A DNA stretch of 52,432 nucleotides from an uncultured Rikenellaceae bacterium (GCA_964481765.1 CAYZVJ010000004.1:1-52432); one strand, 5' to 3'. Counted from the first letter of the stretch, positions 1,969 through 42,781 are shown. The notes: generated by a model from the letters alone, not told the origin. A program made the numbers and translations.

Positions 1969-4221
1969 TCACTTCATTTTATATCTGAACCCGAGATAAA
2001 TGTTCCGTCCGAATATTGGTCCCCAGATCAGGGAGCTGTCAAAATAGGGACTGAACGGATCCTCGCTTGACAGAATCGGATTTTTCTGTTTAAAGTCAAA
2101 CAGGTTTTCCACACCCAGGTAAACCTCATACTTTTCCTTCCAGGTTTTTGAAACCTGTGCATTGACCAGGTAGTATGCAGGAGAATATTTTTCGAGCTGG
2201 TGCTTTTCGGGATTCGATGAAAGATCCGGGATACGTTTCTTACCCTGTCGGTTCAGGGTAAGATCAAATTTCCAGTATTTCCGGGTTTCATAGGCCATAT
2301 TCAGGAATCCACGATGTTGTGAAATCAGGGGTTTCTGAAGCAATTGATCCTGGTAGGTGGTTTTTACATCATACCAGCGATAGGCGATCCGCAGGTCAAG
2401 CCTGTTGGTCACCTCATAGTCGAACTGAGCCTGAAAACTGTTTGACCAGGATTTGCCATCCAGGTTATAAAACAGGACTTGCTGCGGACTGAAATCGTAA
2501 TCCATCACGATCTGATTTTCAAAATGTGTCCTGTAAAAATCAAGGCTGATAACACCACTCCTGTAATCGAGTGTGAAGGTTTGTGTCAGGTTCACTCCAT
2601 AGTTCCATGCCACTTCAGGATCCAGTCCGTAGGGTTTGTCTGAATTATCGCCCTGGATGATCACTTCCCGGGAGGTAGCCAGGATGGCATTGTTTTCAGC
2701 AAGGACATTTGCTGTCCGCTGTCCCCTGCCACCAGCCAACCGGAGGATTGTTCTGTCCGTTATCGGATAGCGAACAAACACTCTTGGGGTTATGAATGGT
2801 CCGAAAAGGTTGTGATAATCAGCGCGGATCCCGGCTACAAAGATGAATTTATCGAACGGGTTATAGGTATATTCAAAAAATGCGCCGGGAACAATTTCGG
2901 TCCGGTCATAATCATCCCCGTTCAGTGATTCCATGTAATCATCATACTGGATACTGGTTCCCGTTTTAAAGGTATGATTGGTATTACCGATGATACTCTG
3001 AAAGAGCAGGTTGGCATAGAAACTGGTTTGAACGGCCCGGTATTTGTTCAAACCGAACCACGATTCCTGGTGGTGGGTTACGCCGGAAAGTTGCAGTCCG
3101 GTGCTCTGCCATGTTTTCTTCTGGTTGATTTTCCCGATCTTTGCCCATCCCTCCAGCCGCTGCGTAAGGAGATCCATGCCCCAGTGATCGGTAAGTCCTA
3201 CATCCGTTTCAGGATCGAAGGCAACCTCTCCTCCCACTTTATTGATGTGGGTCCCCTTGATGCCGAACTGAAAATGGCCGCCCCGAGGACCATGAAATTC
3301 CCAACGGTTCAACAGAAGGTATTGCCTGGACAACGGATTATCAAGAAAACCATCATCATTCCTGTCGTGTTTAACAGATTCGTTACTACCGTGCAGCAGA
3401 AAGGCGGTACCCCACTGCTCATTGATTCCGATTTTAACATTGGCATTTGCTTCCACCCTGCCCATTCCATTGGCATACCCGTTCAGGTAGAGTTTATCCA
3501 TGGTTTCGGGCTTCCACAATTCAACGTTAATCTGTCCTGCAATGCTTTCATAACCATTCGATACAGAACCGGTTCCTTTTATGAGCTGGATCCCTTCAAT
3601 CCATGTTCCCGGGATATAGGTTAACCCGTAAATGGCGGATAATCCGCGGACATCAGGAATGACTTCACGGGTAATTTGAGTATAGGGCCCCGCCAATCCC
3701 AACATTTGTATCTGACGGGTCCCGGTTACAGCATCCGTGAAGCTGACATCCACAGAGGGATTTGTCTCAAAACTTTCGCTCAGGTTGCAGCAGGCTGCTT
3801 TCACCAGCTCTTTCTGCCCTATTTTCTCAACCTTCAGGGGTTCAAGATACCCGATCTTCGTACTTTTCTCCCTGTGAACAATCCTCAACTCATCGATTGA
3901 AACAGAGTTCAGTAACTCAACCGAAATATGCTCCTGATCAGAAACATCGATCGTATCCGACTGATAACCGACGTAACTTACTACCAGGTGAGTCTCACCC
4001 GGAAAGCGTTTCAGTTTGAAATTTCCATCCGGATCGGTTGTTGTACCGGCTAAGGTATTCAACCAGTAAACATTGGCTCCGATCAACGGCATTTCATCGC
4101 CCTGACCGGAATTCTCTGTCACCCTTCCTTCAATGTATTTACTCATCTGTTGTGCCTGCAGTCCTGAATGAAGAAAAGGGAGAAGAGAGATCAACAGTAA
4201 AACATGACGTGGTTTCATCAT
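1969..4221 (-). CDS. TonB-dependent receptor with N-terminal carboxypeptidase-regulatory-like domain
   Basis: 750 aa. Signal peptide MMKPRHVLLLISLLPFLHSGLQAQ. CarboxypepD_reg-like segment (GRVTE...PLIGANVYWLNT..GTTTDPDGNFKL). Plug-like region, then a long beta-barrel-type alternating sequence to the C-terminus. The start lies 1 nt after the stop of the upstream HMA gene. Confidence 0.9.
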   Translation of the reverse strand: MMKPRHVLLLISLLPFLHSGLQAQQMSKYIEGRVTENSGQGDEMPLIGANVYWLNTLAGTTTDPDGNFKLKRFPGETHLVVSYVGYQSDTIDVSDQEHISVELLNSVSIDELRIVHREKSTKIGYLEPLKVEKIGQKELVKAACCNLSESFETNPSVDVSFTDAVTGTRQIQMLGLAGPYTQITREVIPDVRGLSAIYGLTYIPGTWIEGIQLIKGTGSVSNGYESIAGQINVELWKPETMDKLYLNGYANGMGRVEANANVKIGINEQWGTAFLLHGSNESVKHDRNDDGFLDNPLSRQYLLLNRWEFHGPRGGHFQFGIKGTHINKVGGEVAFDPETDVGLTDHWGMDLLTQRLEGWAKIGKINQKKTWQSTGLQLSGVTHHQESWFGLNKYRAVQTSFYANLLFQSIIGNTNHTFKTGTSIQYDDYMESLNGDDYDRTEIVPGAFFEYTYNPFDKFIFVAGIRADYHNLFGPFITPRVFVRYPITDRTILRLAGGRGQRTANVLAENNAILATSREVIIQGDNSDKPYGLDPEVAWNYGVNLTQTFTLDYRSGVISLDFYRTHFENQIVMDYDFSPQQVLFYNLDGKSWSNSFQAQFDYEVTNRLDLRIAYRWYDVKTTYQDQLLQKPLISQHRGFLNMAYETRKYWKFDLTLNRQGKKRIPDLSSNPEKHQLEKYSPAYYLVNAQVSKTWKEKYEVYLGVENLFDFKQKNPILSSEDPFSPYFDSSLIWGPIFGRNIYLGFRYKMK

Positions 4222-4222
4222 C

Positions 4223-4585
4223 CTAATGTTTCCCGTCTCCGTCCCTGTAAAGGCAGCATGCAGGCAGCGTGTTGTATACTTCGTCTTTTGCCTTTACTTT
4301 TTCGGTATCATGTCCGGCTTCGGCTACTGCTTTGTGCAGATCGTCCAGGGTTACCTTGTCGATGCGGTAGATGACTTTCAATGTATCGGTCATCTTATCC
4401 CATTCAACAAACTTCACCCCTTTCATAAGGGCGGCATTTTCAATGCGCTCCTTGCACATGTTGCAATTGCCTTTGACAACAAATTTTTCCGTTACAATCT
4501 TTTTATCCTTGTCCTGCGCCGATACATCCATTATAGAAAATACCAGGGCAATAAATATCGTTATACTATATATGCTTGTTTTCAT
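4223..4585 (-). CDS. Exported heavy-metal-associated (HMA) domain protein
   Basis: I prefer the internal start MKTSIYSITIFIALVFSIMDVSAQ (signal peptide) over the ORF-track start at 4627. HMA-type CxxC metal site in VVKGNCNMCKERIENA, plus a C-terminal PACC motif. Confidence 0.8.
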   Translation of the reverse strand: MKTSIYSITIFIALVFSIMDVSAQDKDKKIVTEKFVVKGNCNMCKERIENAALMKGVKFVEWDKMTDTLKVIYRIDKVTLDDLHKAVAEAGHDTEKVKAKDEVYNTLPACCLYRDGDGKH

Positions 4586-4668
4586 TTTGATTTGTATTGG
4601 GTTAATAATAAAATACACCTCTCCCAACCGGCAATTACCGGTGAATCATAATTTAGAATGCATTTTTA

Positions 4669-5115
4669 CTAACCGTAAAAAGTAAGCGTACAATGGAGTA
4701 GCCACAAGGGTTGTGGGTTGGGTGGGGGTAGATCATAAAACCTGCGATTCTCGGCTGAATCATCGTCTTCCGATTCGGAACCGTGTACGGACGGATTTAA
4801 AACATGATCCTTCCCTGGAGGGGAATTCGTGGCTGTATTTATGGTAATCTGTTTATCCTCCAAATACTGTATTGAATAATGTTCATTGGAGCAGCACTCG
4901 CCTGTATTCTCCAATGAGCATGTTTTTTCAGGCAGCTCATGATTACAGCATTCCCGGATTCCCGACACCTCATGACAGCAGCAATCTTCAACAGACGGAA
5001 TGATTCCTATGGATACAATATCTCCCTTACAGAAATGTACATTAACGGGCACACCCATTAATGCAATCATGTATAAAAAAGAGAGTCCTGTGGCGATAAG
5101 CTGTTTCACAATCAT
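4669..5115 (-). CDS. Cys-rich membrane-anchored protein, resembling the Bacteroidota HYC_CC_PP family
   Basis: 148 aa. N-terminal TM segment (LIATGLSFLYMIALMGVPV) followed by HFC, CCCHE, ECCNHE, ECCSNEH and a C-terminal PPPNP. It sits directly upstream of the HMA and TonB-receptor genes on the same strand. The family name is from memory, not a search. Confidence 0.6.
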   Translation of the reverse strand: MIVKQLIATGLSFLYMIALMGVPVNVHFCKGDIVSIGIIPSVEDCCCHEVSGIRECCNHELPEKTCSLENTGECCSNEHYSIQYLEDKQITINTATNSPPGKDHVLNPSVHGSESEDDDSAENRRFYDLPPPNPQPLWLLHCTLTFYG

Positions 5116-5366
5116 TCAATTTTCGGATCGAATATAATGATTCTCCAGAAGGTAAGATCGAATTAATTTGGATGTTATTTATACTGTTATACAGAAAATA
5201 TGCCGGATTTTTCAGGGAGATTAAAATCAAGGGATCTCCCCAAGCACTTTGGAATTAACGAAGAATTGCTGTAAATTGGTTAAATAAACCAAACAGCGAC
5301 AACGCATATAAGGGATATAAACGCAATGCGTTTATCCGCTAGCTTTGGCAACAATAAATTTTATAC

Positions 5367-7112
5367 ATGATGAAGAATCCAACATTTACTCTGTTATTAA
5401 TACTATATCTAATTTTTCTGACACCAAGTATTAATGCTCAAAACAATGATAATTATTCAGAACTGATTAAAGAATGTGAAGATTTAATCATCAAAAAAAT
5501 GGAATCGGATCAAATAATTGGGGTAAGCGCCGCAATTATAGTTAATGATTCGGTTATCTGGAAAAAAGGGGTTGGTTACGCTGATAAAGACAATAATATT
5601 CCAATGACTATAAATACAGTTGTTAACATTGCTTCAGCCACAAAAACATTTACAGCCCTGGCAATAGTACAACTTCAGGAAAAGGGATTACTTGATATAA
5701 ACCAACCCCTGAATAAATACTTGCCTCAGTTTAATCCTCTAAAAAGGGGAGAGAATTTGGATAATCTGACTATTAAATCTGTTATCACTCATTCCTCTGG
5801 AATCCAGACTGATGTATTGAAAAACACTGACCTGGGATCAGGAAAATATACCGATGTTCTGGGATTTATCAATGAAACCTATTTATTGTATCCTCCGGGC
5901 TTGGTTGAATCTTATTCCAGTTCTGGCTATAACATCTTAGGGCATCTCATAAAAGAGGTGAGCAAGCAAGATTACTCTGAATATATTAAAAAAAGTATTT
6001 TCACTCCGCTTGGGATGAGTAATTCCGGCTTTATAATGGATTCCTTAAAAAATAGAACCAGGGTATATTCCGGAGGGAAAAGCATACATGACTTCGGTTT
6101 TAGTGGTATTGCATCAGGAGGCATTTATACTAACATCAATGATTTTATTAAATATGCGAGAGAATTAATGCATGCATATCATGGCATGAATTCTTCTTTA
6201 ATTAATACATCAACAATTCAGGAGATGTTTTCTCTTCAATCAGGCAATGTTATAATAGAGTCTAATAAAAAAGGATTGGGGTGGTATATGTTTAAAAATG
6301 ACTCGGTTTTTGCGGTCACTCATGCAGGAGACGCAGTAACCGGACACGCTGAAATATGTCTGATCCCTGAAAAAAATACAGCTGTTATGATTTTAATCAA
6401 TTCAGCCGAGGGCGAATCCCTGAGAAGAGACTTTTGTTTTAATTTCATAAATAAATTCGGATTAAGTGTTCCTGATATAATACCTCCCCAGGTTATAAAA
6501 GAAATACATAATGAAATTATGCCTGTAATTTTACCGGAAGGTATTTTAAAAAAACATGCCGGGGATTATTCCCAGGGATTTTCATATATAACTATTTCTG
6601 CACAAGATGACAAACTCATCGTCAACAGAGATGGCAATCAATTTAACATAATAGCATTGTCTGAAAATGAATTCGTACCATATGAAAAAACAGGGCAGGA
6701 TTCCCTGTCAATAAAAGATAATGAAAGATATTGCTTTATGGATTATGATAATTTTCATATTCTGTTCCATAAAGATGGCAATAACGAATCGAGGTTGGGA
6801 TACAGGTTGAATACATTTGATATACCATCAATAACAAAAAAACTAGGCGTATATGAACACTATGGTTACCAGTTAATAATGGGAGATACAAAATTTAAAG
6901 GAGCAGAATTGTCGATAGCCAATGATAGGATATTGATGCTGAACTTAATTTCTTATGATGGTGAGTACCCATTCCCGCTTAATGTAATATCTGATGAATA
7001 TGCAGTTACCAGTGGCCTGGGAACAGGATTTGGTTTTACTGTAAAATTTACGGAAGATGAAAAATATGACATAGTCGATTTCGGTGGAATAACGTTTAGA
7101 AAAGAAAAGTAA
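5367..7112 (+). CDS. Exported serine hydrolase, beta-lactamase/PBP4*-like fold, with an extra C-terminal domain
   Basis: 581 aa. Signal peptide MMKNPTFTLLLILYLIFLTPSINAQ. SxxK active-site motif SATKTF. YSSSGYN (Y-x-N-like) and HAGD (class C-like third motif region). About 200-aa C-terminal extension. Confidence 0.85.
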   Translation: MMKNPTFTLLLILYLIFLTPSINAQNNDNYSELIKECEDLIIKKMESDQIIGVSAAIIVNDSVIWKKGVGYADKDNNIPMTINTVVNIASATKTFTALAIVQLQEKGLLDINQPLNKYLPQFNPLKRGENLDNLTIKSVITHSSGIQTDVLKNTDLGSGKYTDVLGFINETYLLYPPGLVESYSSSGYNILGHLIKEVSKQDYSEYIKKSIFTPLGMSNSGFIMDSLKNRTRVYSGGKSIHDFGFSGIASGGIYTNINDFIKYARELMHAYHGMNSSLINTSTIQEMFSLQSGNVIIESNKKGLGWYMFKNDSVFAVTHAGDAVTGHAEICLIPEKNTAVMILINSAEGESLRRDFCFNFINKFGLSVPDIIPPQVIKEIHNEIMPVILPEGILKKHAGDYSQGFSYITISAQDDKLIVNRDGNQFNIIALSENEFVPYEKTGQDSLSIKDNERYCFMDYDNFHILFHKDGNNESRLGYRLNTFDIPSITKKLGVYEHYGYQLIMGDTKFKGAELSIANDRILMLNLISYDGEYPFPLNVISDEYAVTSGLGTGFGFTVKFTEDEKYDIVDFGGITFRKEK

Positions 7113-38870: not shown

Positions 38871-38930
38871 ATCGTTTATAAACGTTTACAAACGTTTACA
38901 AACGTATATAAACGACTACAAACGTTTAAT
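38871..38930. repeat. Six tandem, helically phased 10-bp repeats (consensus AACGTTTACA)
   Basis: Read directly: ATCGTTTATA AACGTTTACA AACGTTTACA AACGTATATA AACGACTACA AACGTTTAAT. Located in the divergent intergenic region between the Zn-ribbon gene (start 38838) and ssb (start 39037). Confidence 0.85.
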
Positions 38931-39402: not shown

Positions 39403-39430
39403 TTGTATGGTTTTTTTCTCTCATGCAGGA

Positions 39431-39460
39431 GGGGCCGGTTCAGATCTTCGAACCGGCCCC
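39431..39460. terminator. Strong stem-loop between the convergent ssb and ATPase genes
   Basis: GGGGCCGGTTC (39431-39441) pairs with GAACCGGCCCC (39450-39460), an 11-bp GC-rich stem with an 8-nt loop. A T-rich stretch (TTCTGCTT) follows on the plus strand. Confidence 0.7.
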
Positions 39461-39483
39461 TTCTGCTTAAGTTTATGGTATCA

Positions 39484-41814
39484 TTATTCTTTCAATCGTT
39501 TTTCAATCTCCTTCATCAGGTGGTTAAAATTATCCCGTGTCTCCTCGTCAAAGTCTTTAAATGTAAGTTTTTCATCCTGTATCGTTTGTACAAAATTTGC
39601 AGCGAGAATGGAGCGTGACAGGTTATTCGTTTTGATGAAGTCAGCATTGGATTCGGGAATACCAATTCTCTGGTGCAGGATATATTTCTTAAAATCAATG
39701 GTGGAAAACAGGTCTTCAATGCACTGTTCTTTCCCGATGGAAATGAGCTTTCGATCTGCTTTCTTATCGTCGTTTCCGAAGAGGTTAAGTTTCAGTTCAC
39801 CAAACAGTTCATGTCCCTCCGGATCGCCCTCGGTCACCACGATAAAATCAAGTCCCCACCCCAATAACAGGTTTACCAGGTTTCCAACATTGGAAACATC
39901 AGTAGCCGGAAGAAGGTATACTTTTTTTGAAGGTTTTCTGAGTTTCATGAAAGCGGAAAGGTAATAGTAGGCAGTAATGTCTTCAAGGATAACATTATTC
40001 TTCTGCTGGATAAACTGTTGTTCCGATAGCCTCGATCCCATCATTGTATAGATCGGTGAAAGTGTATCGGTTGATGCCGATGTAAGGGATTTTGCGTCGA
40101 ACACCGTGGTTTCGCTTCGCTCATAATCTTCCACAGCGCGTTGAACGGCCAGCAGCCGGTATAACTTATTCAGGTCGATCAGGTGGGGTGAATGGGTAGT
40201 GTAGATGATCTGTATCTTACTTTTAATATCTTCAAAGACTTTAAGGACATCTTCCTGTGCTCTTGCATGGAGGCTGAGTCCCGGCTCATCGATCAGAAGC
40301 AATTTGCCTGTACTTTCTTTTTCCATTGCCGCTGCTTTCAGCTCAAGATAAAAGGAGAGGAACCATCGTACACCGCGGCTTCTCTGCTTGGGATATAACC
40401 GTTCCTGTTGATCCCTGATCCAGAACTCAATGAATGGGTGGCCACTCTTCTCAGGGTGGGAATGATCGTAATGCTCCAATTCAAAATTGATCCTGATCTT
40501 GTTATGCTGACCAATTTTTTGTCTCCAGTAGTCTTGAAAATTGATGGTTATTTCGGTATTCAGCTTTTCAATCTTCTGTTTCAGTATCCGGTGGCTAACC
40601 TGTTTGAAAAAATCGGAATCAAGGCCGGAAATTTTAAGAAAATTATTAGCAGCCTTGTACCCTTCCACTTTTCTATTTTGTGTAAGGATATCATCCAGGT
40701 CAATGCGGTTTGGCAAAAGGCTGCTAAAATCTTCAAACAGTACAAATTCAGGAATGTATTTGATCAATTCATTCCCAGCCTCAACCCGGGTGTAATAGGG
40801 ATTGATGTGGGGCTTTTCCTGTTTGATTTCTCTTTCTGCCATTGACAGATCCTTCCCCTGCAGGATTTTCAGTGCCAGGTATCTCCGGGTGATTGCCTCT
40901 TCACGGCACCGTTCATATTCCCGGACAACCTTTACATGTTGTTCATTTGTAAGATCGAGTTGAAGCCTGCCTGCCCTCTTCTCTTTATCACTCATTGCAA
41001 ATTCAAAGATCCTTTGATTTTCAGCCAATTCTTGAAATGAACGGTTCAGATCTTCTGTTGCTTTCCTGTAGTTCTCCTGTGCCTCATTGCTTGCCTGTGC
41101 ATATTTTGCCTGTTCTTCGAGTTCCCGGACTTTCTGATGCTGTTCATCTGCTGCTTTCTTCTTGTCCTGTAACCTGGTTCTCAGCTTTTCGAGGGCATGT
41201 TGTTCAAGGTCAATGTTTTTCTGAATTTTCGGACGGGAATGTTCCGGCGAATTCTTCAGCATTTTCTGAAGATCACTGATCTTCGCTCTGCTATCCTCCA
41301 CCGCTTCACTGACCTCATCCTTTTCCCGGTTAGCGGTTTTCAGACCAGTAAGGGCCTTCTCTTTCTGTTCCAGTATTCTGTCAATTTTAGCCTGGATCTT
41401 TTCATCTTTCTCATGAAACTTCTGATTGTGTAGTTCATACAGTTCTATAATTTCCTTACCACCCAGTTCAATACGACTCGAGAAATCTTCATTCCATAAC
41501 CTTCCCAGGGTAATGGTATTCTGATCCTTAACGCATTTTGACACACCAGAGGGTAACTCTTTCTCGTTAAGAACTTTGTTAAATTCCCTATCGGTAATGT
41601 CGAATTTGCAGGAAACGACAGGCATGCTCAGGTCACTTCTTAAAATGTCTTCTGATATGCTGCCTTCGTAGAAACTATTCAGTGCTTCCAGGATGGATGT
41701 CTTACCAGATTCGTTCTGACCGATAAGTCCGGTGATGTTATCCGGGGAGAGCTGTGACCAACCCGTATCGACGATTGACCGGAAATTTTGAATTCGAAAC
41801 GCGAGTAATTTCAT
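39484..41814 (-). CDS. ABC/SMC-type ATPase with a long coiled-coil insertion and a C-terminal Toprim/DUF4435-like domain (OLD-family or fused PARIS-like candidate defence protein)
   Basis: 776 aa. Walker A GQNESGKTS. About 200 aa of heptad-rich K/E/Q sequence. Signature-like RSRGVRWFLSFYLEL. Walker B/D-loop LLLIDEPGLSLH. H-loop IIYTTHSP. C-terminal pattern NVILEDITAYYYL ... YLLPATDVSNVGNLV ... DFIVVTEGDPEG resembles Toprim. Confidence 0.75.
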   Translation of the reverse strand: MKLLAFRIQNFRSIVDTGWSQLSPDNITGLIGQNESGKTSILEALNSFYEGSISEDILRSDLSMPVVSCKFDITDREFNKVLNEKELPSGVSKCVKDQNTITLGRLWNEDFSSRIELGGKEIIELYELHNQKFHEKDEKIQAKIDRILEQKEKALTGLKTANREKDEVSEAVEDSRAKISDLQKMLKNSPEHSRPKIQKNIDLEQHALEKLRTRLQDKKKAADEQHQKVRELEEQAKYAQASNEAQENYRKATEDLNRSFQELAENQRIFEFAMSDKEKRAGRLQLDLTNEQHVKVVREYERCREEAITRRYLALKILQGKDLSMAEREIKQEKPHINPYYTRVEAGNELIKYIPEFVLFEDFSSLLPNRIDLDDILTQNRKVEGYKAANNFLKISGLDSDFFKQVSHRILKQKIEKLNTEITINFQDYWRQKIGQHNKIRINFELEHYDHSHPEKSGHPFIEFWIRDQQERLYPKQRSRGVRWFLSFYLELKAAAMEKESTGKLLLIDEPGLSLHARAQEDVLKVFEDIKSKIQIIYTTHSPHLIDLNKLYRLLAVQRAVEDYERSETTVFDAKSLTSASTDTLSPIYTMMGSRLSEQQFIQQKNNVILEDITAYYYLSAFMKLRKPSKKVYLLPATDVSNVGNLVNLLLGWGLDFIVVTEGDPEGHELFGELKLNLFGNDDKKADRKLISIGKEQCIEDLFSTIDFKKYILHQRIGIPESNADFIKTNNLSRSILAANFVQTIQDEKLTFKDFDEETRDNFNHLMKEIEKRLKE

Positions 41815-41873
41815 GCCGGATGGTTATAACTGTTGATCGAATACACGAAAGTACAAAAATTGATAATACCGGA

Positions 41874-42692
41874 TTAAAATCGTACACCCATAATTAAAAT
41901 GTCATCCACCTGCTCCAGGTCCCCTTTCCACTCTTCCAGTGCAGAAACAAGTATCTCTCTCTGATCCGGTAAAGGCTTGTGGTGAATCTCCAGCAACAAC
42001 TCCTTGAATTGTTTGTATTTGAATTTCTTTCCCCAGACCCCTCCAAACTGATCGGCAAATCCATCTGAGAAAAGGTATACAATATCACCCGGAAGAATTT
42101 TCAGCATTTGATTGGAGAAGGATAATTCTTCCGTACCGCTGATACCGATGGGCATTTTATCGGGTCTGATCTCTTCCATGTCATTTTTACGAATCAGGTA
42201 AAGGGGGTTATTTGCACCGGAATATTGTAATTCTCCTGAATCGGGTGTATAGATGCATAGTGCGATATCCATTCCATCTTTCGATTTCGCTACCTCCCCG
42301 GTCTGGTGTAATGCTTTCATGATCTTCTCGCGCAATTGATTCAACATGCGGTTGGCTTTGAGGGCACATTTTTCCTGCAGTATCTCATTCAGAAAGGATA
42401 TTCCAAGAATGCTCATCAGCGCACCGGGAACTCCATGACCGGTACAATCCGCAGCAGCGAATATAACCTTGTTGTTCTTTTCAGCCAGCCAGTAAAAATC
42501 ACCTGAAATGATATCTTTGGGCAGGTAAAGAATGAAATTATCGGGCAAATAACGGTTCAGTACACTTTCCGTAGGGAGAAGTGCCGACTGGATAAGGCTG
42601 GCATACTGAAGGCTGTAAATAATCTCCTTCTTCTGACGGGCAATTTCATCCCGCTGCCGCTCAAGCTCTATTAGGAGATTATCATCCGGCAT
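41874..42692 (-). CDS. PP2C/SpoIIE-family protein serine/threonine phosphatase
   Basis: 272 aa. Short N-terminal coiled coil, then ISGDFYW, AADCTGHGVPGALMS, DGMDIALC, LFSDGFADQFG and DDILIMGVRF motifs of the SpoIIE/RsbU-type PP2C fold. Confidence 0.85.
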   Translation of the reverse strand: MPDDNLLIELERQRDEIARQKKEIIYSLQYASLIQSALLPTESVLNRYLPDNFILYLPKDIISGDFYWLAEKNNKVIFAAADCTGHGVPGALMSILGISFLNEILQEKCALKANRMLNQLREKIMKALHQTGEVAKSKDGMDIALCIYTPDSGELQYSGANNPLYLIRKNDMEEIRPDKMPIGISGTEELSFSNQMLKILPGDIVYLFSDGFADQFGGVWGKKFKYKQFKELLLEIHHKPLPDQREILVSALEEWKGDLEQVDDILIMGVRF

Positions 42693-42781
42693 AACTTCAT
42701 TGACTTGTTTCGGGTTTTACCCAAAGATATAAAATTCAAAAGAAAACAGGTAACTTATCTGATCTTCCAGTGTGTGGTTTA

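Follow-up and report, generated by a model that had tools for sequence, protein, structure and literature searches.

The window analysed here is a stretch of 52,432 nucleotides (nt) from an uncultured Rikenellaceae bacterium (GCA_964481765.1 CAYZVJ010000004.1:1-52432). On its minus strand, at 39484..41814, there is an open reading frame (ORF) for an ABC-type ATPase of 776 amino acids (aa), which a first-pass annotation, made from the sequence alone, had described as a stand-alone OLD-family or fused PARIS-like candidate defence gene. Upstream of it on the same strand (41874..42692) there is a gene for a SiaA-type PP2C (SpoIIE-family) phosphatase of 272 aa, which matches Pfam SpoIIE with E=1.3e-22 and is the first gene of the pair. 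There is no terminator-like hairpin, as judged by a scan, in the 59 nt spacer between the two (41815..41873, minus strand), and in many relatives the junction measures -4 to +12 nt.

The phosphatase partner

Throughout 20 genomes from the window's GTDB family (20/20), the PP2C gene immediately precedes the ATPase gene on the same strand, even where no other synteny is left. In a set of 80 species-representative loci, all of them from uncultured Bacteroidales or Bacteroidota metagenome-assembled genomes (MAGs), PP2C occupies the upstream position in 67-68 of the 70 loci that have enough upstream sequence. There is no third recurrent gene at the 80 loci, the next commonest neighbour being found at 15/80 or fewer. 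In all seven ATPase-positive genomes (7/7) a PP2C lies next to the ATPase, its open frame measuring 267-296 aa, and none of the ATPase-negative genomes (0/15) has a PP2C frame shorter than 326 aa. The short PP2C therefore tracks the presence of the ATPase, which shows that the two genes are gained and lost together. Taken together, the comparative sequence data indicate that PP2C is an obligate partner of the ATPase and that the two form a fixed two-gene operon. The first-pass view of the ATPase as a gene without a typical partner must therefore be given up. We found no description of a PP2C/SpoIIE phosphatase paired with an OLD or ABC ATPase in the searchable literature; a PADLOC candidate system that contains a PP2C does exist (10.1101/2024.01.29.577857).

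The phosphatase itself has a short N-terminal linker helix only and no sensor domain. It aligns over residues 10-272 with the PP2C domain of Pseudomonas aeruginosa SiaA (PDB 6k4e, E=4.8e-37) and matches the NCBIfam model prot_phos_SiaA (NF038263, E=2.1e-54) over profile positions 396-657 of 658 only; the score of 185 bits, against an equivalog cut-off of 700 bits, comes from the catalytic part alone. Conservation across 70 orthologues is 95% or higher for the catalytic motifs SGDFY, DCTGHGVPGA, DG..DQFGG and Q.DD. There are 12 SiaA-like PP2C ORFs in the genome and the partner of the ATPase is the only short one, the other 11 having large N-terminal sensor regions. The same genome has five stand-alone SiaC-family genes, none of them at the pair, and one small HATPase_c_2 kinase-like ORF. 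None of the PADLOC models hits the partner PP2C at E<=10.

A candidate promoter for the pair, TAtcTTTG at 42718-42725 (minus strand), was found by eye approximately 30 nt upstream of the PP2C start and fits the Bacteroidota -7 consensus TAnnTTTG. A scan for consensus sigma-70 promoters was uninformative, as this is a Bacteroidota genome. At the other end of the pair, the 3' ends of ssb and of the ATPase gene converge on a G+C-rich hairpin (39425..39466; terminator scan), whose stem has 17 pairs, 12 of which are G-C. The hairpin is likely to be a bidirectional terminator that ends the transcript of the pair.

In one clade (13-15 loci) the pair is part of a tight row of four same-strand genes, seen for example in L084 (24-7786), with gaps of 10, 10 and 2 nt. 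The row starts with a 1051-aa Reg_prop/Y_Y_Y sensor that also has a SpoIIE domain, continues with the short PP2C and the ATPase, and closes with a C26 peptidase; an opposite-strand SiaC-family gene beside tsaD follows. We considered SiaC, which is near the pair at 15 loci, as a third component, but rejected it as local synteny because it travels with tsaD. In the window's genome the tsaD-linked SiaC gene is on a different contig from the pair.

Architecture and ancestry of the ATPase

The first-pass annotation recognized a split ABC head in the 776-aa protein, and the ORF, the Pfam matches and the conservation of the motifs it quoted all bear this out. AAA_15 covers residues 1-546 (E=9.7e-23), AAA_21 also matches (E=1.2e-17), and there are weaker matches of the head to SMC_N and AAA_23. 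The N-terminal lobe (residues 1-117; 41464..41814, on the minus strand like all the segments that follow) has the Walker A motif G32-QNESGK38TS and is matched by AAA_15, AAA_23 and SMC_N. The C-terminal lobe (residues 357-547; 40174..40746; AAA_15 and AAA_21) holds the FEDFSSLLPNRIDL block, a signature-like KQRSRGVRWFL, the Walker B motif LLLID509E510, a D-loop and the H-loop TH541SP. Across 119 relatives GQNESGKT[ST], KQRSRGVRWF[LI], LIDEPG and THS are invariant, and K38, D509-E510 and H541 are present in 76/76 PP2C-linked species representatives.

An AlphaFold2 model of the ATPase, made with 45 homologues as input, has a mean predicted local distance difference test (pLDDT) score of 83.7. 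Three long helices (120-188, 191-271 and 276-318; pLDDT 80-92) split the ABC head and make up a coiled-coil insert of approximately 238 aa (residues ~118-356; 40747..41463), in line with the heptad-rich insertion of about 200 aa that had been read from the sequence. The head is followed by a linker (residues 548-605; 40000..40173; pLDDT 50-80) in which the alignment shows conserved LLAVQR and AS.DTLSPIY, DTLSP being kept both in the PP2C-linked family and in its stand-alone sister family. Next comes a divergent OLD-type Toprim core (residues 606-695; 39730..39999), and the protein ends in a helical region (residues 696-776; 39487..39729) whose invariant columns include IE700D701LFS704T705IDFK709 and R716-x-G-I719.

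The C-terminal elements of the model run in the order b607-610/a613-626/b633-636/a640-652/b657-661/a665-678/b690-692 and then helices, which as modelled is a Toprim-like order. E611, with D612 next to it, is directly after the first strand, and E662-G-D664-P-E-G667 is directly after the third strand, at the place of the DxDxxG motif. Residue 641, in the loop between b2 and a2, was considered by eye as a Ser/Thr phospho-site and discarded because the position varies (S, T, L, N, I or D).

Direct searches with this part of the protein gave little. Residues 541-776 (236 aa) match no family in Pfam or PADLOC at E<=10, and the window ATPase has no direct match to the Toprim_Old, OLD-like_TOPRIM or DUF4435 models of these collections. 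A profile of the C-terminal family gave only chance-level matches to PDB sequences and no hhalign alignment with P2 Old (probability 0.1%); a whole-protein profile aligned with P2 Old over the Walker B/H-loop block only (probability 82%). P2 Old is too distant for single-sequence comparison.

Comparison of folds was more informative. In a Foldseek search with the whole model the best PDB matches are GajA (8u7i, E=2.7e-10) and the Thermus scotoductus (Ts) OLD protein (6p74, E=1.5e-9), and the three GajA structures 8u7i, 8sm3 and 8x5i match with E=2.7e-10 to 2.6e-8. The GajA and OLD alignments extend over approximately 850 columns, in comparison with approximately 600 for the heads of SMC, cohesin and RecN. 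When residues 548-776 are modelled and searched alone, 6p74 and GajA again rank first with probabilities of 0.91-0.96, but the E values are only 0.02-0.06 (6p74, E=0.022; GajA 8sm3, probability 0.96); the retron Eco2 Toprim, Topo VI-A, DnaG and receiver domains come later among the matches.

The link to known OLD proteins is completed by intermediates. A search of 1.84 billion proteins with the C-terminal profile gave 854 cluster representatives with E values down to 1e-60, many of them proteins of 570-650 aa that have the same C-terminal domain behind a shorter ATPase. PF20469 (OLD-like_TOPRIM) matches within the aligned stretch of P0243 (24.6 bits), P0256 (21.3 bits) and P0199 (18.2 bits), the cut-off being 23.2 bits. 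Plasmid-borne relatives from Lactococcus lactis and from Bacillus thuringiensis (where the protein is annotated as OLD family-like) align by tblastn with residues 354-770 of the window protein (E approximately 1e-30) and score 21.1 and 22.9 bits, respectively, on PF20469. The C-terminal profile aligns by hhalign with the L. lactis plasmid protein over 204 columns (probability 98.1%, E=8e-14), pairing NNVILED with NNIICEG and TEGDPEG with FDNDTAG.

Because the fold matches, the bridge through PF20469 and the hhalign alignment agree, we conclude that both the OLD-type Toprim assignment and the first-pass mapping of E ... E-G-D on to the Glu and DxD positions are correct. Judged by predicted fold and transitive homology, with no direct model match, the C-terminal domain is a very divergent OLD-type Toprim; the Toprim half of the original Toprim/DUF4435 suggestion stands and the DUF4435 half, which has no match at E<=10, falls away. 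The proposed OLD-family ancestry is thus upheld, and the data show that the 776-aa protein has its origin among stand-alone Class-1-like OLD ATPase-nucleases.

Outside the PP2C-linked family, the closest relatives are Proteobacteria proteins of approximately 600-630 aa, including those of Variovorax, Bradyrhizobium, Paraburkholderia and Afipia, which databases name 'ATP-dependent nuclease'. These sister genes stand alone in unrelated contexts, without PP2C, and the plasmid-borne OLD-like relatives are also without a partner. (On the L. lactis plasmid pLLN8-2, L128, an opposite-strand ssb lies approximately 600 nt downstream of the OLD-like gene at 2838-5684; this is probably coincidence.) The ATPase insert is 226-241 aa in the PP2C-linked family versus 46-112 aa in the sisters, and in a maximum-likelihood tree the PP2C-linked family sits on one long branch. 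The comparison shows that one uncultured Bacteroidales lineage lengthened the coiled-coil insert by approximately 150 aa and became fixed beside a sensor-less PP2C.

Two short motifs in the C-terminal helical region follow the phosphatase. All PP2C-linked proteins compared have RxGI (71/71) and most have ST[IL]D (64/71); both motifs vary among 113 sister proteins. Two related Bacteroides-labelled MAGs, L081 and L088, are the sole loci with room upstream but without PP2C; in the tree these two ATPases fall within the family, and no others have SKND and RANI in place of ST[IL]D and RxGI. This gives a hint, from a single evolutionary event, that the surface formed by these motifs is tied to the phosphatase.

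In Ts OLD the metal-A triad consists of E377, D431 and D433, that is, a Glu after the first strand and a DxD after the third (PMC7049728), and the metal-B ligands and catalytic Arg/Lys residues are D381, S478, E480 and R487. The window protein has E611 and E662-G-D664 at the acidic positions of the triad, with the first Asp of the DxD changed to Glu. Candidate equivalents of the metal-B and Arg/Lys residues, D612, E700/D701 and K709 or R716, are highly conserved, as placed by alignment. The Glu and both acidic positions of the DxD are kept in 113/113 stand-alone sister proteins but in only 27/76 PP2C-linked proteins. Among these 76 representatives the Glu is present in 57, both DxD acidic positions in 28 and neither of the two in 40, and the window protein is one of the 27 with the full triad. 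In a deeper branch of the window's family the Glu has become N or S and the DxD reads NND, SNP or HND. In the maximum-likelihood tree the DxD has been lost independently three times or more, and so has the Glu. The window clade (EGD) is nested among DDD sequences, and its change from Asp to Glu must therefore be recent; the replacement of the DxD by E-G-D, which had been singled out as unusual, is real and is one case of a decay that runs through the family. Alignment thus indicates that the Toprim triad is not a family-level constraint in the PP2C-linked proteins. As judged from the sequences, the nuclease metal site is shown to be under relaxed constraint, with the motifs of the ATPase and the phosphatase intact.

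Distribution, inheritance and surroundings of the pair

The ATPase gene is single-copy in its genome. It was found in 22/25 and then in 111/201 sampled genomes of the window's family, which consists of uncultured Bacteroidales, and in 18/20 genera. Within the window's genus there is a match in 5/5 genomes, one of them split in two, and the locus is the same in the four that were checked. In other families of the order the ATPase was found in 2/16; it was not found in 400 other genomes from across the phylum, nor were full-length relatives found on phages. Within any one genus the members show a uniform identity to the query (57-58% in one genus and 39-45% in another, for example), and the divergence of the ATPase parallels that of neighbouring housekeeping genes.

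Damaged copies also exist. In the window's genus, the ATPase of L036 (G001) is broken into a 307-aa and a 513-aa ORF (4001-4924 and 4942-6483) with PP2C and the neighbouring genes intact, and is either a pseudogene or an assembly error. In two other genomes of the family (G482 and G441) the ATPase has in-frame stops.

The first-pass annotation judged the gene by eye to be more A+T-rich than its neighbours and took this to be consistent with horizontal acquisition. The measured G+C content is 0.428, with 0.470 at third codon positions (GC3), in comparison with 0.449+-0.028 and 0.490+-0.048 for 34 genes of the window, and the G+C content of the genome is 0.436. The ATPase gene is therefore within one standard deviation of the window genes. 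With normal composition, a single copy and uniform identity per genus within one family, there is no case for horizontal acquisition. The only compositionally foreign-looking gene in the window is a 581-aa ORF at 5367-7112 (plus strand; G+C content 0.340, GC3 0.297).

The neighbours of the ATPase in the window are SSB, the PP2C and a Mem_trans transporter, with an SRAP gene nearby. PADLOC gave no match for the ten flanking genes. SSB is near the pair in 14/80 loci and SRAP in 6/80, all in close relatives with general synteny. We considered SSB as a functional partner and rejected it, because it is adjacent only in those close relatives and its convergent gene lies beyond a strong terminator. 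In the divergent intergenic region between ssb and a Zn-ribbon gene (38873-38904) there are tandem 10-bp units, CGTTTGTAAA / ACGTTTATAA, which appear as a long A+T-rich hairpin in the terminator scan and fit phased AACGTTTACA repeats.

The features of a mobile defence island, namely atypical composition, defence neighbours and sporadic presence in close relatives, are thus not those of this locus, the gene being carried by 5/5 genomes of the genus and by 18/20 genera. Neither composition nor context nor distribution supports the earlier proposal of a candidate defence gene. Because identity is uniform per genus, divergence is like that of housekeeping genes, the flanks have no PADLOC match and there are no phage relatives, the genomic data indicate that the pair is a lineage-specific, mostly vertically inherited, dispensable chromosomal module and not a mobile defence island.

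Possible roles and comparison with known systems

We think it on balance probable that the OLD-derived ABC ATPase is an ATP-driven sensor or switch for the sensor-less PP2C, a defence-type enzyme that has been reused. The ATPase would no longer be mainly a nuclease and would replace the N-terminal sensor domains found in the 11 paralogous PP2Cs. Binding of the signal (a nucleic acid or a protein), of the phosphatase or of both would probably fall to the long coiled coil together with the Toprim-derived domain. As the output, phosphate would be removed from a phospho-threonine switch protein, for which the five SiaC-family proteins or the ATPase itself are candidates. Given the ancestry of the ATPase, a foreign protein or some nucleic-acid structure could serve as the signal, and a role related to defence would be compatible with this. 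RsbT acts on the N-terminal part of RsbU, and the control logic proposed here would be analogous to that, or to the hold of AriA over AriB in PARIS.

A more specific form of this proposal can be put forward tentatively: the pair may represent a fifth, phosphatase-coupled OLD class in which a domesticated ABC ATPase of the immune type is the subunit that senses the signal in a SiaA/SiaC-type phospho-threonine switch and the output has moved from DNA cutting to protein dephosphorylation. The Toprim-derived domain would then be a regulatory, receiver-like module. The S704-T705 helix cap together with RxGI could be a docking site for PP2C or a phospho-site, because both are lost together with PP2C in L081 and L088. 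The window member, with its acidic residues kept, would be an intermediate that may retain both outputs.

Several observations weigh against the ATPase as a sensor or switch. Operon structure and co-occurrence, as read from genomes, demonstrate a functional linkage between ATPase and PP2C and not the direction of control between them. Neither a kinase nor a SiaC gene belongs to the module; where one clade has SiaC close to the pair, this looks like local synteny. The window protein keeps E611, E662-x-D664 and E700/D701, as does approximately one third of the family, so a nuclease may matter there, and going by its residues the window's own copy may have residual nicking activity. The pair is missing from nearly all of one genus (an absence that is partly inferred) and from some other genomes, and it is occasionally disrupted; it is thus dispensable, like defence genes. 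Finally, every carrier is an uncultured MAG.

The strongest alternative, which we regard as rather unlikely, is a working anti-phage or anti-plasmid system in which an OLD-type ATPase-nuclease effector is checked or switched on by PP2C. The phosphatase could, for example, be a second effector itself, or it could take off a phosphate that is inhibitory or was placed by the phage, and the pair would be a stably inherited fifth OLD class. Every characterised bacterial OLD class is a defence system (PMC10568477, PMC12796447), the best fold matches of the window protein are GajA and OLD, and distant relatives are found on conjugative and mobilisable plasmids. The acidic residues kept by the window member would also be expected of a nuclease effector, and the pair is dispensable, is patchy above family level (2/16 families of the order; 0/400 in the phylum sample) and moves between genomic contexts as a unit. 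However, the canonical Toprim metal site is lost in 49/76 representatives in which ATPase and PP2C are intact. There is no defence-island context, composition is normal, and PP2C is without a PADLOC match at the same E<=10 threshold. The single copy, the constant locus in the checked genomes of the genus and the housekeeping rate of divergence also speak against a defence system.

It is improbable that the protein is a chromosome-maintenance or DNA-repair ATPase like Rad50, RecN or Cran1, with its coiled coil and Toprim on DNA and PP2C tuning it by dephosphorylation. The SMC/Rad50/RecN-like head with a long coiled coil would suit such a role, Cran1 sets a precedent with its function in the cell cycle, and ssb and SRAP genes are nearby in the window's genus. 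However, the adjacency of SSB and SRAP (14/80 and 6/80 loci) is limited to close relatives, with ssb convergent behind a terminator, and no DNA-metabolism gene is consistently linked to the pair. The absence of the pair from most Bacteroidota and from nearly a whole genus also argues against a core function in replication or repair.

A stand-alone Class 1 OLD nuclease or a fused AriA-AriB defence gene brought in by recent horizontal transfer is very improbable: the PADLOC models AriA (E=5.9e-23) and Old (E=1.6e-19, residues 491-649) do match, but the AriA match is to the generic AAA_15 head only, there is no match of the DUF4435/AriB type and with it nothing to support a fused PARIS-like protein, the PP2C partner is conserved, and neither composition nor context gives a sign of transfer in a family where inheritance looks vertical.

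If the ATPase does act as the sensor or switch of the PP2C, a defence-type ABC ATPase can be rewired into phospho-signalling and a PP2C without a sensor of its own can receive an ATP-driven input. Every bacterial OLD protein characterised so far is an anti-phage nuclease, and the archaeal exception, Cran1, has kept the ability to nick DNA. In the present family an OLD-type ATPase is tied to a protein phosphatase across hundreds of species, and its nuclease site decays in most of them. The family forms a natural series from an intact triad, as in the window protein, through partial to lost, in which the role of a Toprim domain after cutting has stopped can be probed. There is also a warning for annotation, as a protein with AAA_15 and a Toprim-like domain is not always a defence gene.

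The general plan of the protein is that of Class 1 OLD proteins (P2 Old and Ts OLD, 6p74): an AAA_15/AAA_21 ATPase with an insert, then a C-terminal Toprim and helices. Unnamed single-gene relatives of approximately 570-660 aa from Proteobacteria and Firmicutes plasmids have the C-terminal domain and the motifs DTLSP, NN.I.E, GW and IEDxFS in common with it. In comparison with both groups, the window family adds the insert of approximately 238 aa, the obligate PP2C, the ST[IL]D/RxGI motifs and vertical inheritance. Class 1 OLD proteins are encoded by single genes, whereas the window ATPase comes with a PP2C partner.

The Class 4 protein GajA of Gabija is the best full-length fold match, with a probability of 0.95-0.96 in the Toprim region at only 10-14% identity. 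In contrast with Gabija, there is no GajB/UvrD-type helicase beside the ATPase of the window family at the 80 loci; PP2C is there instead, and the nuclease site is not conserved. The UvrD/PcrA/Rep-like helicase that neighbours Class 2 OLD genes is likewise not found at these 80 loci. There is no reverse transcriptase, as in the Class 3 retron OLD systems, among the neighbours, and msr/msd RNA was not searched for.

PARIS also combines an AAA_15-type ABC ATPase with a Toprim-class domain, and AriA is a sensor that holds and releases the effector AriB, which is the working logic we propose for the window pair. However, the window Toprim is of the OLD type and fused, without a DUF4435 signal, and the separate partner is a phosphatase and not a nuclease.

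SiaABCD of P. aeruginosa is a threonine-phosphorylation switch that comprises the PP2C SiaA, the kinase SiaB, the phosphoprotein SiaC and the cyclase SiaD (PMC7647112, PMC8457831). The window PP2C is most similar to the catalytic domain of SiaA, and the genome has SiaC-family and kinase-like proteins. However, the window PP2C has no membrane/HAMP sensor, there is no SiaB, SiaC or SiaD in the operon, and an OLD-type ATPase neighbour is part of no described Sia system.

Finally, Cran1 of Sulfolobales is an OLD-family ATPase-nickase that is vertically inherited, has a cell-cycle role and is apparently not a defence protein (PMC12796447). Compared by description, it differs from the window protein in being archaeal, in keeping a potent nickase and in having no phosphatase partner. 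By analogy, Cran1 provides an earlier example of an OLD-family ATPase that is inherited vertically and apparently works outside defence.

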